Shown: positions 28-7,261 of the stretch, piece after piece | Numbering within the stretch: the stretch's first letter is position 1 | Layout of the letters: each line of letters starts with the position of its first letter | DNA from: Pseudomonadota bacterium | GTDB lineage: Bacteria > Pseudomonadota > Alphaproteobacteria > Rhodobacterales > Rhodobacteraceae | Assembly: GCA_038521775.1 (NCBI GenBank) | Contig: JBCBKN010000082.1 | Span: 1-14,018 of the forward strand | DNA: 14,018 nt | Reading direction: 5' to 3' | Position numbers and translations under genes: made by a program | Notes under the pieces: model-generated | Told to the model about the DNA's origin: nothing | What the model saw: only the letters and a program-made list of their open reading frames with translations | Databases searched by the model: none

Positions 28-471
28 TCAGTCCTTGCGGAAGAACTTCTTTTCGCGCGGTTGTCCGTCCCAGCCGGTTTTCTGACGAGGACGGTCCTCG
101 CCGCCGCCGCCACCGCCGGCCGCACCGTCGCGCCCGCCCCGATCATGCGCCCGCCCATCGCTTGAGCGCCCATCATGTGAGCGGCCATCGCGGCCGCGCG
201 CACCGCCATGGGCCCGCAAACCGCCATCGCCCCGCGGCGGCCGGCCGCTGCTGCCCGCGCCGTGATCCTCGCGCACTTCCCATTTTTTCAGAAGACGGGC
301 GTCGAACCGGTCGCGGCCGATCTGCCCTTCATGGCACCAGATCGTCGAGACGATCGTGCCCGTCGCGGTGCTGGGGTCTGCCGCATCGCCGGTGATTTCC
401 ACCGCTTCCACCGCCATGCGCATGGAACCGGCCGTGAGGACCACAAGATCCCCAACCTCATATTTCGTCAT
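28..471 (-). CDS. DUF2158 (YodC-like) small domain protein with a C-terminal Arg/Gly/Asp-rich low-complexity extension (about 148 aa)
   Basis: ORF 28..636(-) trimmed to the internal ATG at 469-471 (MTKYEVGDLVVLTAGSMRMAVEAV...WCHEGQIGRDRFDARLLKKWE is the DUF2158 signature). AAGG sits about 10 nt upstream and a TTGCAT-N17-TATAGA promoter lies just 5'. The tail GRDGRSHDGRSSDGRAHDRGGRDGAAGGGGGG is encoded by imperfect gcccatc-type nucleotide repeats at 100-240. Stop TGA at 28-30. Confidence 0.6.
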   Translation of the reverse strand: MTKYEVGDLVVLTAGSMRMAVEAVEITGDAADPSTATGTIVSTIWCHEGQIGRDRFDARLLKKWEVREDHGAGSSGRPPRGDGGLRAHGGARGRDGRSHDGRSSDGRAHDRGGRDGAAGGGGGGEDRPRQKTGWDGQPREKKFFRKD

Positions 472-2907: not shown

Positions 2908-4449
2908 CTACGCCATGCCGGAGGGGTGCGGAGCCCTGTCGACTGCGGCCATCTCGGCACGCGCCAGCGCCTCCATCAGCTCGGCCCGCATCGCCATGTG
3001 GTCCGGATCGTCCCAAAGATTGCGGAACTCGCCGGGATCGGTTTGCAGATCGTAAAGCTCGCCCCAGCTCAGCCCGTGAAAAAGCGTCAGGCGCCAGCGC
3101 GCCGTGCGCAGGCTGTGCACCCGTGGCGCGCGGCCCAGCGCGGGCATGTCGCGCTGGTTGTCAAACTGGATGAAGGCCGCGTCACGGCCGGTTGCAAGCA
3201 GATCCTGCCCCTGCACGCCGAGGGCTGCTTCGATTCGCGCGCGCTCGAGAATCGTCGGGCCGATATCGTGGGTCTGGCCGATGGCACCGGTCCGGCCCGT
3301 GGTCGGCCGTTCCGGATCCGCCCAGATGAAGGGCACCCGGGTGAGCTGCTCATACTGCTCGGCGCCTTTCAGCAGCAGACGGTGATCGCCCAGATGATCG
3401 CCGTGATCGGAGGTGAAGACCGTCACCGCCTCGGCCGCCTTGGGGGCCGTGCGCACCTGCCCGACCGCATCGTCGATCATGCCGATCATCCCGCAGGTCA
3501 GTGCCCGCGCCTCCTGCGCCTCGCGCGCGCTCACCGCAATCGTGCCCATGCCGCCAAGTGCGGCCTCGCCCGCGGCACGCTGGGCGATCATGCCGGCCAC
3601 ATGCGGCGGCGGCGTCCAGTCATTGACCGAAAACGCCTCGGGCACCGCCATCTCCTCGGGCCGGTAAAGGTCCCAATAGCGCCCGGGCGGGTTGAAGGGA
3701 TGGTGCGGGTCGGGGAGGGAGACCATCAGAAAGAAGGGCTGATCGCCGGTCTGGCCGCGCAGCCAGGCCTCGGCCCGGTCGGCGATATAGCGGGTGACGT
3801 AGAGCTCCTCGGGCAGGGCGGTGCGCACCGCCTGCGGGCAGATATAGTCATGCGGGATCTCGTTTTCGGCCCCCACAAGCTGGTCGGCCAGAGGCTCGCG
3901 CGCCAAAAGCCAGCTGCGGTAATCCCCGCCGCAGAAATCGCCATGGCCGGTGACCAGCTCGACATGGTCAAAGCCATAGAACGGGGTGCCGGGCGCGGCC
4001 TGACCGGGCGCCTCCTGCCGGTAGCCGGCATCATGCCCATGGCGCATCGCCTCGGCCAGATCGCCCGCGGCGCGATGATAGCCAGGGCGCGTCTGCGGCG
4101 GTTGCAGGATGGCCGGCCGGCCGGTGAAGTTCTGCAGATGGCTTTTGCCGATCAGCGCCGTGCGATAGCCCGCATCGCGCAGCAGCTCCACAAAGGTGAC
4201 ATGCCGTGTGTCGAGCGGAATGCCATTGGAGCGCACCCCGTGGCTTGAGGGCAGGCGCGCGGTCATCAGGCTGGCCCGGTTGGGCATGCAGACCGGGCTT
4301 GCCACATAGAACCGGTCCCAGACGGTGCCGGCCGCGGCGATGGTGTCGATATTGGGGGTGCGCAGCACCGGATGCCCCATACAGCCCAGATAATCGGCGC
4401 GATGCTGGTCAGTGATGAAGAGAATGAAACTCGGCCGGCGATCGGTCAC
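2908..4449 (-). CDS. Sulfatase family protein (Cys-type, C-x-P-x-R motif CMPNR), about 513 aa, with no signal peptide
   Basis: ORF 2908..4635(-) trimmed to GTG at 4447-4449, which has a GAGGA RBS 7 nt upstream and overlaps the upstream gene's TGA stop (ctGTGAcc). The N-terminus PSFILFITDQHRADYLGCMGHPVLRTPNIDTIAAAG...ASPVCMPNRASLMTAR...LIGKSHL is the classic sulfatase N-terminal domain with a formylglycine-target motif. Confidence 0.85.
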   Translation of the reverse strand: MTDRRPSFILFITDQHRADYLGCMGHPVLRTPNIDTIAAAGTVWDRFYVASPVCMPNRASLMTARLPSSHGVRSNGIPLDTRHVTFVELLRDAGYRTALIGKSHLQNFTGRPAILQPPQTRPGYHRAAGDLAEAMRHGHDAGYRQEAPGQAAPGTPFYGFDHVELVTGHGDFCGGDYRSWLLAREPLADQLVGAENEIPHDYICPQAVRTALPEELYVTRYIADRAEAWLRGQTGDQPFFLMVSLPDPHHPFNPPGRYWDLYRPEEMAVPEAFSVNDWTPPPHVAGMIAQRAAGEAALGGMGTIAVSAREAQEARALTCGMIGMIDDAVGQVRTAPKAAEAVTVFTSDHGDHLGDHRLLLKGAEQYEQLTRVPFIWADPERPTTGRTGAIGQTHDIGPTILERARIEAALGVQGQDLLATGRDAAFIQFDNQRDMPALGRAPRVHSLRTARWRLTLFHGLSWGELYDLQTDPGEFRNLWDDPDHMAMRAELMEALARAEMAAVDRAPHPSGMA

Positions 4450-4979
4450 AGCAGATCCTCGATGAACAGACCCAGATATTGCGCGCGTCCCGACACGCCG
4501 GCCTTTCGAAAAACGGCATTCGACTGTGCCTTGATGGTGCCTTCGCTGGTTTTGCGCAACTCTGCGATTTCCGAATTGGCAAAGCCCTTGAGCATGAAGA
4601 GCGCCACATCGCGCTCGGACGGTGTCAGCCGCCATTGCGCGAACCGGTCCTGCACCACGCCGTGAAATTCCGAGGAGGCCGCGCGCAGACGGTCGGCCGC
4701 GCGCTTGCGCTGGCGCAGCAGCGTTGCGGTCAGGATGGCGCCCATCGCCATGCCCAGCAAGAGCCCGGTGGTGGCCATGATCTCCAGCGCCTCATGCCAG
4801 CTCCAGCTCACCGGCGCGTCGCGCCAGCCGAAAATCGAGGCGGCGAGGTCATAGACAAAGAACACGCCGCAGAGCGTCTGAAGCGTCGCAACCAGGATCA
4901 CCGCGACCGGGCCGCCCCAGCCGCCCTGCAGGTCGCGCGGTCCGGTGACGGGGGGAGGCTGATGCTGGGGCTCAGTCAT
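4446..4979 (-). CDS. LuxR/GerE-family HTH transcriptional regulator anchored by two N-terminal TM helices (about 177 aa); alternative start 3 codons upstream at 4988
   Basis: C-terminus LTPSERDVALFMLKGFANSEIAELRKTSEGTIKAQSNAVFRKAGVSGRAQYL is a GerE-type HTH. N-terminus has two hydrophobic helices (PVAVILVATLQTLCGVFFVYDL and IMATTGLLLGMAMGAILTATLL) flanking a short Trp-rich loop. The ORF-track N-terminal extension (MSNRALAHPKRTT...TRIQTRIQ...) is an out-of-frame read of the upstream gene's repeat tract and is rejected. The start ATG overlaps the upstream gene's end (ATGACTGA). Confidence 0.75.
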   Translation of the reverse strand: MTEPQHQPPPVTGPRDLQGGWGGPVAVILVATLQTLCGVFFVYDLAASIFGWRDAPVSWSWHEALEIMATTGLLLGMAMGAILTATLLRQRKRAADRLRAASSEFHGVVQDRFAQWRLTPSERDVALFMLKGFANSEIAELRKTSEGTIKAQSNAVFRKAGVSGRAQYLGLFIEDLL

Positions 4980-5526
4980 CGCCGCCATCTGAATCTGAGC
5001 CCGAATCCGAATCCGAGCCCGAGTCGCTGTCGGAATCCGAGTCGCTGTCAGTGCCCGAATCGCTGTCAGTGTCGGACCCGCTGTCTGTATCCGTGTCTGT
5101 ATCCGTGTCTGAGTCAGTGTCCGGGCCGTCCGCATCGTCCCGATCTGCGTCGTCCCTGTCGTCTGTGTCGTCCCGGTCTGTGTCGTCCCCATCATCCCTG
5201 TCGGCCGGGTCTCTGGAGCGATCCTCAAAATCCTCGGGATCGCGGCCGGGCTGGAACGGGCTGAAATCGCGGTTGTTCTCTTGGGATGTGCCAGCGCTCG
5301 GTTGGACAAGATCGCGCAGCACTTCTCCGGTGCGGGGGTTGATGATCAATTCACGCCGGTATCCATCGCGGGTCGCCTCGATCTGCACCCGGCCGAGCCA
5401 GGTGCGCTCGACCTCCACAATCTCATAGCCCTGCTCTTCAAGGAATGTGATCGCCGCCGCGGTGGCATCGGCCCGCGACGGTTCGGCCGCAAAAAGCAGC
5501 AGCATGATCAGCAGGGCACGGTGCAT
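4972..5526 (-). CDS. Secreted PepSY-like domain protein with a roughly 85 aa Asp/Ser/Thr-rich acidic repeat tail ending ...SDSDGGDD (184 aa)
   Basis: Sec-type signal peptide MHRALLIMLLLFAAEPSRA. The PepSY-like core ITFLEEQGYEIVEVERTWLGRVQIEATRDGYRRELIINPRTGEVLRDLV follows. The tail runs DRDDGDDTDRDDTDDRDD...DTDSDTDTDTDTDSGSDTDSDSGTDSDSDSDSDSGSDSDSGSDSDGGDD. A GGGGAG RBS lies 6 nt upstream of the ATG at 5524-5526. Confidence 0.75.
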   Translation of the reverse strand: MHRALLIMLLLFAAEPSRADATAAAITFLEEQGYEIVEVERTWLGRVQIEATRDGYRRELIINPRTGEVLRDLVQPSAGTSQENNRDFSPFQPGRDPEDFEDRSRDPADRDDGDDTDRDDTDDRDDADRDDADGPDTDSDTDTDTDTDSGSDTDSDSGTDSDSDSDSDSGSDSDSGSDSDGGDD

Positions 5527-5549
5527 TCAGGCTCCCCGGCTAAAGCTGT

Positions 5550-5579
5550 GGGTCCCACCCGGCGGCGCAGATGGGACCC
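5550..5579 (-). promoter_or_regulatory. Intercistronic hairpin (8 bp stem gggtccca/tgggaccc, 14 nt loop) between the DRDD-repeat gene and the PepSY-like gene; possible partial terminator or attenuator
   Basis: Seen directly in the 68 bp spacer between the stop at 5595 and the start at 5526. It is followed on the minus strand by ACAGCUUUAGCC (weak U content) and precedes the GGGGAG RBS. Confidence 0.3.
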
Positions 5580-5594
5580 GATCCCGCGATGGGC

Positions 5595-5894
5595 TTAATC
5601 ATCGCCGCCGTCACTGTCACTGTCACTGTCGGAGTCGCGATCGTCCCGGTCATCCCTGTCGTCGCGATCATCCTTGTCGTCCCTGTCGTCGCGATCATCG
5701 CGGTCGTCCCGATCATCGCGGTCATCCCGATCGTCGCGGTCCAGCAGCCCGACGGTGTTTTTGGCAGCGGTGTCGAGCGTGTGACCGATCCGGCTGAAAA
5801 GGCCCGCAATGCCGGTCTCATCCGACGCGGCCGGGGTTGCGAGCGGGGCGAGCAGCACGGCCAGGGCCAGGGCTGGGAGTTTGAGCTGGGTCAT
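5595..5894 (-). CDS. Small secreted protein (99 aa) with about 11 tandem DRDD tetrapeptide repeats and a C-terminal DSDSDSDSDGGDD
   Basis: Signal peptide MTQLKLPALALAVLLAPLATPAAS, a 30 aa unique segment, then (DRDD)n with one DKDD variant. The AGGACAAGGACG RBS region lies upstream of the ATG at 5892-5894. The underlying DNA is a 12-nt-unit tandem repeat plus (gtcact)3. Confidence 0.7.
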   Translation of the reverse strand: MTQLKLPALALAVLLAPLATPAASDETGIAGLFSRIGHTLDTAAKNTVGLLDRDDRDDRDDRDDRDDRDDRDDKDDRDDRDDRDDRDSDSDSDSDGGDD

Positions 5895-5958
5895 CTGTGG
5901 CGTCCTTGTCCTGTTCGACCGACGGCGGGATGCCGTGGCCGGTCCGACAAAACGCGGT

Positions 5959-5986
5959 CCGGCATGGCATGCGCCATTGGCCGGCA
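5959..5986. promoter_or_regulatory. Near-perfect palindrome CCGGCATGGC-ATGC-GCCAT(TG)GCCGG plus adjacent direct repeat CGGTCCG-N9-CGGTCCG, 45-90 bp upstream of the DRDD-repeat gene; candidate operator
   Basis: Inverted repeat seen directly. The sequence from 5939 is ccggtccgacaaaacgcggtccgg. Its position fits a regulator-binding site in the module's promoter region. Confidence 0.25.
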
Positions 5987-6040
5987 GTTTGGGGCGCGGC
6001 TTCTAAACCCTTGTGAGCATACAATAAACCGGGGTTTAGC

Positions 6041-7261
6041 CTAAAGATCCTCGTTCAGGGCCTCGGCCACGGTGAAGATGTCCTTGTCGCCGCGCCCGCA
6101 CATATTCATGACCAGCAGATGGTCGGCGGGCAGATCGGGCGCGATCTTGGCGACATGGGCCAGCGCGTGCGAGGGTTCGAGCGCCGGGATGATCCCCTCG
6201 GTCCGGCAGCTCAGCTGGAAGGCCGCCAGCGCCTCCAGATCGGTGACCGAGACATATTCGACCCGGCCGGTGTCGTGCAGCCAGGCATGCTCGGGCCCGA
6301 TGCCGGGATAGTCGAGCCCGGCCGAGATCGAATGCCCCTCCAGGATCTGGCCGTCCCCGTCCTGCAAAAGATAGGTGCGGTTGCCATGCAGAACGCCGGG
6401 GCGGCCGCCGGTCAGGCTGGCGCAATGCTCCATCCGGTCATCGACGCCATGCCCCCCCGCCTCGACCCCGATGATGCGCACCGCGCTGTCGTCGAGGAAG
6501 GGGTGAAACAGCCCCATCGCGTTCGACCCGCCGCCGATACAGGCGACCAGGCTGTCGGGCAGGCGGCCTTCGCGCTCGGCCATCTGGGCCTTGGTCTCGC
6601 GCCCGATCACCGATTGAAAATCGCGCACCATCGCCGGGTAGGGATGCGGGCCGGCCACCGTGCCGATGCAGTAGAACGTGTCGCGCACATTGGTCACCCA
6701 GTCGCGCAGCGCCTCGTTCATCGCATCCTTGAGCGTGCCGCGCCCGGCGGTCACCGGCACGACCGTCGCACCCAACAGCTTCATGCGAAAGACATTGGGC
6801 TTTTGCCGCTCAACATCGGTCGCGCCCATAAAGACCACGCAGTCCAGCCCGAAGCGCGCGCAGACCGTGGCCGTGGCAACCCCATGCTGGCCCGCGCCGG
6901 TTTCGGCAATGATCCGGGTCTTGCCCATGCGGCGCGCAAGCAGGATCTGGCCCAGCACATTGTTGATCTTATGCGCGCCGGTATGGTTGAGCTCATCGCG
7001 CTTGAGATAGATTTTCGCACCGCCGAATGCCTCGGTCAGCCGCTCGGCAAAGTAAAGCGGCGAGGGCCGGCCGACATAATGCGTCCAGAGATCCTGCATC
7101 TCGGCGGCAAAGGCCGAGTCGGTCCTGGCCTTTTCATACTCGGCCTCAAGGTCGAGGATCAGCGGCATCAGGGTTTCGGAGACAAAGCGCCCGCCGAACA
7201 TGCCGAAGCGGCCCTTTTCATCCGGCCCCGTCCGGTAGGAATTGATCCTGTCACTGGCCAT
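6041..7261 (-). CDS. trpB: Tryptophan synthase beta chain (406 aa)
   Basis: [33 protein letters not shown]...[11 protein letters not shown]...[16 protein letters not shown]...[11 protein letters not shown] is unmistakable TrpB with its PLP-binding motifs. ORF 6041..7588 trimmed to the ATG at 7259-7261, which has a GGGAGG RBS 6 nt upstream. Confidence 0.95.

Follow-up and report, generated by a model that had tools for sequence, protein, structure and literature searches.

A three-gene locus encoding two predicted secreted proteins

The contig JBCBKN010000082.1 (assembly GCA_038521775.1) of a member of the Rhodobacteraceae, analyzed here as a stretch of 14,018 nucleotides (hereafter, the window), carries on its minus strand three consecutive genes that we call B, A, and R. 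The first two encode small, predicted secreted proteins with Asp-rich C-terminal tails, and the third encodes a predicted membrane-anchored regulator of the LuxR type (Table 1). Both A and B end in SDSDGGDD, directly followed by a stop codon, and the question considered here is what this shared end represents; a preliminary description of the sequence had suggested a conserved C-terminal tag for sorting, processing, or recognition or, alternatively, a metal-binding terminus.

The identity of the last eight residues is one of peptide and not of codons. Gene A ends in ...DSDSGSDSDGGDD*, encoded by gat tcg gat tcg ggc tca gat tca gat ggc ggc gat gac tga, and gene B in ...DSDSDSDSDGGDD*, encoded by gac tcc gac agt gac agt gac agt gac ggc ggc gat gat taa. 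Only three of the eight shared codons are identical, with the serines of the shared end being encoded by TCN codons in A and by AGT in B. Both open reading frames and both sets of codons were confirmed, such that the preliminary description was correct on this point. Since the GC content by codon position in A (0.68/0.48/0.71) and B (0.77/0.43/0.75) is close to that in trpB (0.67/0.45/0.84) and differs from the pattern in alternative frames overlapping A and B, the two reading frames are most likely the right ones. An independent Logan contig record contains an identical 184-aa A, with a 99-aa gene upstream.

The longest DNA word common to the two tails of the window measures 11 nt, compared to 10.1 ± 2.2 nt after synonymous shuffling, which bears out the earlier suggestion that the likeness resides in the peptide and does not stem from a recent DNA duplication. 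The SDSD half of the match is trivial, given the SD dipeptide repeats in both tails. The SD run of B is encoded by a perfect microsatellite, and the presence of a single GACAGT unit in a close relative (L002) suggests that the SD run of B expanded recently. Across the family described below, the full eight-residue identity between A and B was seen in the window genome only, its nearest relatives being without it.

Hydrophobic leaders, read as the signal peptides of A and B, and the membrane topology of R were judged by eye. The region following the leader of A scored 21.6 bits against Pfam PepSY_2 (PF13670), or 18.7 bits when the full-length protein was used, with a gathering threshold of 24.3; among relatives, PepSY_2 was matched at E ≤ 0.01 by seven of nine A-type proteins (best E, 9.9e-6) and 7 of 17 B-type proteins (best E, 2.4e-6). 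In an AlphaFold2 model based on a 78-sequence alignment, a helix (residues 21 to 31) packs on a four-stranded sheet, with a predicted local distance difference test score (pLDDT) of >95 for residues 20 to 78, and the tail is disordered (pLDDT, ~52). A Foldseek comparison of the full-length model with the PDB returned weak matches (4exr being the best, at E = 0.03, and YpeB, 5boi, ranking 23rd), probably degraded by the 105-residue disordered tail, and a PDB sequence search with the domain profile gave nothing significant. Judging from the model, A consists of a PepSY_2-like domain and a long, intrinsically disordered, polyanionic tail of low complexity; these ~105 residues, with a net charge of about -37, are pieced together from DRDD-type, TD/SD-type, and GGDD stretches. 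In B of the window, on the other hand, no PepSY domain was detectable, an hhalign comparison with the B-type domain profile yielding a probability of 4.6%.

R scored 26.9 bits against Pfam GerE, above the cutoff of 23.5, and its C-terminal 91 residues only matched the NCBIfam family LIC13292_fam (NF047608; 66.3 bits, E = 3.5e-18, cutoff of 200). Neither a receiver nor a kinase domain was found in R with Pfam and NCBIfam.

Conservation of the B-A-R module

A search of 1.84 billion representatives with a profile of the A domain retrieved, at E ≤ 1e-3, 1,782 clusters at the 50% identity level. The profile also matched 220 places in species-representative genomes, of which 80 loci were kept, making 81 with the window. 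Nearly all of the 80 are labeled Rhodobacterales, and most belong to the Paracoccaceae. In 81/81 loci, A is followed immediately by R in the same orientation, usually after a gap of 10 to 100 nt. A B-type gene, comprising a leader and an acidic tail, was found upstream of A in 59 loci, and most such genes have a PepSY_2-like domain of their own; because the detection of B-type genes was heuristic and gene callers often misframe them, the statistics on B reported below rest on these 59 loci. The A-type and B-type domains are paralogous (hhalign probability, 98.3%; E = 1.9e-14), and B of the window is, to judge from its position, the counterpart of the second, paralogous PepSY-like gene of most relatives. 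Comparative analysis of the loci thus indicates that B-A-R is a conserved three-gene module across the Paracoccaceae.

R is far better conserved than A or B, with 55 to 70% identity across the family. Among the orthologues in the 81 loci, the loop motif P-x-S-W-x-x-R-E-x-x-E is conserved and the recognition helix, TSEGTVKAQTNAIYRKAGV, is nearly invariant.

The genes flanking the module are housekeeping genes: 58 loci have trpB next to it, and 66 have ileS. Within ±3 kb, no protease or transporter, of the kind whose co-occurrence the preliminary description had proposed to check, was conserved in the 80 loci. No kinase family was present among the conserved neighbors either. A metagenome scan with R for close relatives gave a single weak match, and a literature search turned up nothing specific on the A/B family, LIC13292, or periplasmic poly-Asp tails.

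A sequence search for B homologues found nothing, probably because gene callers misframe B-type genes, which would also leave these genes underrepresented in protein databases. Misframed acidic-repeat genes (L002, positions 4437 to 4805; L084, positions 2 to 211; P0010; and P0011) were observed either as products starting with MIGTTGMTG or as fusions of B and A via frameshifted basic or Thr-rich stretches; the locus illustrates how often gene callers misframe acidic repeats of this kind. On the antisense strand, Asp-repeat DNA yields long Ile/Val/Ala-rich (or Ser-rich) frames resembling membrane proteins, such as those at 5571-6044 (+) and 5051-5428 (+) of the window, which we consider artifacts on the basis of their codon-position GC pattern. 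Matches of B to ZrgA (zinc uptake) and RNase E were dismissed, being of low complexity and far under the cutoffs.

Turnover of the tails and their termini

Comparison of orthologues suggests that the tails evolve fast, by in-frame repeat slippage. Perfect or near-perfect tandem repeats of 6, 9, 12, 18, and 27 nt underlie the tails of both A and B, and between the window and L002, with R proteins that are 96% identical, the A tail differs by 19 aa and the number of B repeats is 13 versus ~27. The tails are acidic in most of the family, D and E together making up 30% or more of the final 30 residues in 134/205 A-type tails (from the 81 genomes and 124 cluster representatives). The A-type termini in this set include DD, DDD, GGDD, DN, NEN, GKDN, SGRH, SG, KG, and LR. 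SDSDGGDD is retained by A-type orthologues with 90% and 61% identity and by A in both of the closest relatives, whereas B ends in SDRGDD in one of these (L002) and in RDDRDD in the other (L084). Moreover, when orthologues with domains that are 80 to 90% identical are compared pairwise, identity is 37% over the five terminal residues and 60% over the aligned tail interior (47% when gaps are counted). Varied termini and changes in repeat number are largely the patterns, namely, a motif missing from orthologues and hypervariable tails, that the preliminary description had itself named as speaking against a tag.

In a separate group of genomes (L025, L070, L034, L060, L027, L028, and L074), the tails are Ser/Gly rich and less acidic and end in GGKDN, GSDN, or GNEN rather than DD; the GGKDN end is identical in L025 and L070 despite a differing upstream tail.

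Two readings of the terminal residues were rejected. First, A and B of the window contain an EF-hand-like motif, D-x-[DN]-x-[DNS]-G (DSDSDG-GDD). A terminal motif of this type occurs in 2/124, 1/81, and 3/59 family members, of which the two A-type sets do not exceed internal controls and the small B-type set gives 3 versus a control mean of 1.1; without enrichment at termini across the family, DSDSDGGDD was not taken for an EF-hand-like DxDxDG element. Second, the stop codons might have arisen by frameshifts in (GAT)n, but the sequence following the stop is mostly without a continuation of the repeat and the end shows no excess of GAT (its fraction at position -2 of A is 0.54, versus 0.45 in the interior, with no clear enrichment over GAC).

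A preference at the extreme C terminus

Although the terminus is not conserved as a sequence, it does show a position-specific preference, and to that extent the earlier emphasis on the extreme C terminus was justified. In the 205 A-type tails, Asp accounts for 60%, 58%, and 42% of residues at positions -1, -2, and -3, compared to 32.5% in the interior, and Gly for 39% at position -4, compared to 24.5%. In B-type tails, D reaches 76 to 81% at -1 and -2, versus 54% in the interior, and tails of both types show an excess of G or S at -4 and -3. DD-stop occurs in 95/205 A-type tails, versus 22 to 34 at internal truncation controls; split by origin, the counts are 53/124 for cluster representatives (control mean, 14.2) and 42/81 for genome loci (15.7). 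For B-type tails, the count is 41/59, versus 13 to 20 at internal controls (mean, 18.1). [GS]D{2,3}-stop is found 27, 22, and 23 times in the three sets, versus ~5 in each, an enrichment of about fivefold. The tail sets are phylogenetically nonindependent, with the cluster representatives sharing at most 50% identity. Tails of the A and B types thus have a real preference for ending, at the extreme C terminus, in a small residue and then two or three Asp residues. GGDD-stop itself is present in 13/205 A-type and 3/59 B-type tails, and the GGDD half of the match in the window fits this family-wide bias.

Within one genome, moreover, the A and B tails are alike in peptide composition and not in DNA. 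The cosine similarity of their 3-mer profiles is 0.515 within genomes, versus 0.253 between genomes (p ≤ 2e-4), and their last four residues are identical in 12/58 genomes, versus 4% of cross-genome pairs. When poly-D ends are left out, 7 such identities remain where 1.58 are expected (p = 0.0006), and this excess implies some matching that is typical of the A/B gene pair. At the DNA level, however, common words in the A and B tails exceed the synonymous-shuffle control in only 2/59 genomes, and 17/46 codons are identical in shared terminal runs. With 57/59 genomes not above the control, recent gene conversion or duplication between the two tails was rejected as the source of the likeness, with the restriction that the longest-common-substring test has limited power in low-complexity sequence.

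A nonacidic terminal module, DRSGSNSGR plus a final H or G, was found in both A and B of L062, in A only of L044, and in B only of L058. This distribution looks like that of a module that is exchangeable, or differentially lost, between paralogues. The nine shared codons in L062 contain five synonymous and zero amino acid differences, and the two proteins part only at the final residue of the module, H in one and G in the other.

Origin of the shared end

Weighing these observations, we consider it probable that the shared SDSDGGDD is a young, genome-specific convergence in fast-evolving, Asp-rich, disordered tails, and not a sorting tag, and that A and B act as co-sensors of R. The peptide-level likeness would then reflect a soft, family-wide compositional constraint and not a recognition tag. 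B would descend from a paralogous PepSY-like gene that, in the clade of the window, has been reduced to the signal peptide and the tail with a short linker between them. R would be a membrane-anchored LuxR-type regulator without a sensor domain of its own, and A, and probably B, might be periplasmic co-sensors that bind the short periplasmic loop or the helices of R, as DbfQ binds DbfS. The co-sensor proposal follows from the absence of a sensor domain in R, its conserved loop, and the principle that PepSY genes tend to lie next to signaling genes. More speculatively, the polyanionic tails may be the signal-sensitive part, responding to divalent cations, polycations, or ionic conditions. Proteases of the Tsp/Prc type prefer substrates with apolar C termini, and the Asp-Asp end might shield a floppy periplasmic tail from proteases that bind such ends; alternatively, it might add a carboxylate cluster for cation binding. 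The sequences themselves document the gene structure, the conserved module, the hypervariable tails, the terminal bias, the A/B concordance, and the overlap with R; that A and B are secreted, interact with R, bind cations, or evade proteases is what we infer.

Several points weigh against the co-sensor and convergence reading. The proposed link between A/B and R comes solely from gene adjacency, A of the window scores below the PepSY_2 gathering threshold, and the Foldseek matches in the PDB are weak. Since the substring test has limited power in low-complexity DNA, A and B may have undergone gene conversion at some earlier time. The terminal DD bias could also reflect a specific recognition or chelation function, a metal-binding terminus is possible, and the shared terminus in L062 looks like the product of purifying selection on the terminal peptide.

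If the analogy with DbfQ holds, PepSY proteins would have an accessory role not just in two-component systems but also with one-component membrane regulators, and the locus would offer a tractable case for studying what extracytoplasmic, polyanionic, disordered tails sense. The family, with ~1,800 clusters at 50% identity, mainly from marine and freshwater Paracoccaceae, is large and unstudied and combines small, predicted secreted PepSY-like proteins carrying polyacidic tails with a sensorless membrane regulator of the LuxR type. It also poses two puzzles in the evolution of low-complexity sequence, namely, how paralogous tails of one genome converge in peptide composition without DNA likeness and why disordered periplasmic tails would prefer an Asp-Asp end.

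Neutral, low-complexity noise is an unlikely explanation: slippage-prone microsatellites free of sequence constraint would generate the tails, and the shared end would be due to chance and paralogue ancestry, with GDD-stop as a relic outside the repeats and thus beyond the reach of slippage. The tandem repeats under both tails, the large length differences between close relatives, and the rapid turnover of the terminus are as expected for such noise. The same is true for the variant termini DN, DE, ED, and HD, each a single nucleotide step from DD, and for the synonymous variation just upstream of the end (GGC/GGT and GAT/GAC). However, the DD bias is sharp, is limited to positions -1 to -3, and recurs in three separately counted sets, including representatives with no more than 50% identity; with tails changing this fast, inheritance alone explains it poorly. 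Furthermore, concordance between A and B without DNA likeness requires selection, or repeated exchange followed by purifying selection, and the tails have remained in frame and acidic in about two-thirds of the A-type family members.

A reading with more function in it, which we regard as rather improbable, takes B-A-R for a previously undescribed periplasmic sensor in which coselected polyanionic arms, capped by [G/S]-Asp-Asp-COOH, bind cations or polycations and switch R via the PepSY-like domain. Matching of A and B would then result from selection for a common ligand or docking site, and the end would be a short linear motif specific to each clade (GGDD, GKDN, GNEN, or RSGSNSGRH).

Very unlikely, in our view, is the dedicated tag of the preliminary description, [DS]nGGDD, read on A and B by one sorting, processing, or recognition machine, in the manner of LPXTG, PEP-CTERM, or GlyGly-CTERM signals. 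The eight-residue identity despite codon differences, the persistence of SDSDGGDD in A-type orthologues at 90% and 61% identity, and the family-wide excess of [G/S]DD(D) specifically at the terminal positions all fit a tag, as do the above-expectation sharing of the last four residues by A and B of one genome and the complex terminal peptide of L062, with only synonymous changes in its nine shared codons. Still, the terminus varies across the 81 genomes, is absent from B of the nearest relatives, and is no better conserved than the tail interior. For A, conservation in the clade cannot be separated from the constraint of the R start codon that overlaps its end, and the neighborhood holds no conserved protease or transporter. 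Finally, the motif forms the literal end of an acidic, disordered tail and is therefore not followed by a hydrophobic helix or a basic cluster. With the tag thus unsupported, there is no indication of a new secretion or anchoring pathway.

The overlap between A and R led to one more alternative. In the clade of the window, to which the overlap is confined, R starts upstream, inside A, and carries an extra 23-residue N-terminal extension. The window, L002, L004, and L084 share an invariant GATGACTGAG, since it reads as Asp-Asp-stop in the frame of A and as Met-Thr-Glu in that of R, and the codons just upstream of it vary synonymously. A's last two codons are thus additionally fixed in this clade by the start codon within them. 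That GGDD-stop is conserved only as the translation initiation region of R (its start codon and the upstream purine-rich bases) is nonetheless highly improbable, and refuted as a general cause of the DD end, because it leaves B, which is followed by a 68-nt spacer, unexplained, because DD-stop is still enriched in the majority of loci, where R starts 10 to 100 nt past the stop of A, and because GAT is not clearly above GAC at position -2 of A; the overlap is only a local constraint on A.

Comparison with known systems

The closest parallel is DbfQ of Vibrio cholerae, a small secreted PepSY protein that binds the sensor domain of DbfS; PepSY genes adjoin two-component systems >60 times more often than expected, and in Pseudomonas aeruginosa two of them, PA2658 and PA2659, lie upstream of BqsRS (PMC12714742). 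Like DbfQ, A is a small, predicted secreted protein of the PepSY type, encoded co-oriented with and directly upstream of a membrane signaling gene in all 81 loci, and, like P. aeruginosa, most relatives have two tandem PepSY genes at the locus. In contrast to the DbfQ system, the putative partner R is a two-helix, LuxR-type one-component regulator and not a pair of histidine kinase and response regulator, and A and B have long, polyacidic, disordered tails, whereas the portion of the report cited here mentions no such tail for DbfQ. With the PepSY_2 (PF13670) and PepSY (PF03413) families, which include the metal-binding UipA, the A- and B-type domains share a match to PepSY_2, and the AlphaFold2 model of A has one helix packed on four strands. 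A of the window, as noted, differs from them in its subthreshold score and the weakness of its matches to solved PepSY proteins, and B of the window in being domainless.

As regulators held in the membrane that bind DNA, ToxR, which depends on a periplasmic partner, ToxS, and CadC resemble R. Unlike these, R has a LuxR/GerE helix-turn-helix and not an OmpR-type winged helix, and nearly no periplasmic domain. The partial match to LIC13292_fam likens R to regulators of that family, from which its score, at a third of the cutoff, sets it apart.

The SD repeats recall those of the staphylococcal MSCRAMMs (ClfA/B and SdrC/D), which are likewise encoded by short, in-frame DNA repeats of variable length, and the only NCBIfam matches to the A tail were to MSCRAMM repeat regions (7.7 to 20.3 bits, versus cutoffs of 999 to 2500). 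A and B, however, have no ligand-binding A domain, LPXTG motif, or Gram-positive wall anchor, and their repeats form the end of the protein.

LPXTG/sortase, PEP-CTERM/exosortase, and GlyGly-CTERM/rhombosortase signals consist of a motif, a hydrophobic helix, and a basic tail, and substrates of the type 9 secretion system have a folded C-terminal domain. The motif of A and B resembles such signals in its location at the extreme C terminus of predicted exported proteins but has neither architecture and is not conserved among orthologues. The Gly/Asp-rich end is also superficially reminiscent of the RTX repeat GGxGxD. No match to the Pfam RTX family HemolysinCabind was found in A or B at E ≤ 1, and substrates of type 1 secretion systems lack an N-terminal signal peptide, which A and B are predicted to have. 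In sum, the locus lacks the features that define sortase, exosortase, and rhombosortase signals, type 1 secretion/RTX substrates, SD-repeat adhesins, ZrgA, and the LIC13292 family.

Other features of the window

The features of the locus are listed in Table 1.

Table 1. Positions of the features at the B-A-R locus within the window
Feature	Position	Strand	Description
Gene B, 99 aa	5595..5894	-	Predicted signal peptide (MTQLKLPALALAVLLAPLATPAAS), ~28-aa linker, 13 DRD/DKD repeats, (SD)4, GGDD-stop
Tandem repeats of 9/18/27 nt encoding the DRD repeats of B	5634..5741	-	13 repeats here
Perfect 6-nt microsatellite (GACAGT)3.5 encoding the SD run of B	5610-5630	-
SDSDGGDD codons of B	5598..5621	-	Stop TAA at 5595-5597; overlaps the microsatellite at 5610-5630
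B-A intergenic spacer, 68 nt	5527..5594	-	GGGGAG ribosome-binding site before the ATG of A
GC-rich inverted repeat, 8 bp	5550-5579	-	GGGTCCCA, 14 nt, TGGGACCC; inside the B-A spacer
Gene A, 184 aa	4972..5526	-	Predicted signal peptide, PepSY_2-like domain, disordered acidic tail
Signal peptide of A (predicted)		-	Residues 1-19
Domain of A	5293-5469	-	Residues ~20-78
Tail of A	4975-5292	-	Residues 79-184
SDSDGGDD codons of A	4975..4998	-	Stop TGA at 4972-4974
A/R overlap, 8 nt (ATGACTGA)	4972..4979	-	R start codon inside GAT GAC TGA of A
Gene R, 177 aa	4446..4979	-	Two predicted transmembrane helices, short periplasmic loop, cytoplasmic LuxR/GerE helix-turn-helix
Sulfatase gene, 513 aa	2908..4449	-	GTG start overlaps the R stop (GTGA, 4446-4449)

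In the clade of the window, the operon appears to be B-A-R-sulfatase, most relatives having ileS after R. A promoter and terminator scan of positions 4400 to 6100 gave nothing informative. The inverted repeat in the spacer might set the ratio of B to A expression; it is not conserved in L002, which is 90% identical.

The remaining neighbors in the window are housekeeping genes, including trpB, trpF, lapA, a gene of the IHF/HU family, and rpsA. Lastly, an open reading frame of 147 aa (28-471, minus strand) without a Pfam match has a compact N-terminal part (MTKYEVGDLVVL...) and a low-complexity C-terminal half rich in Arg, Gly, and Asp, and a gene of the same length is found in the syntenic region of L002 (9884-10327).

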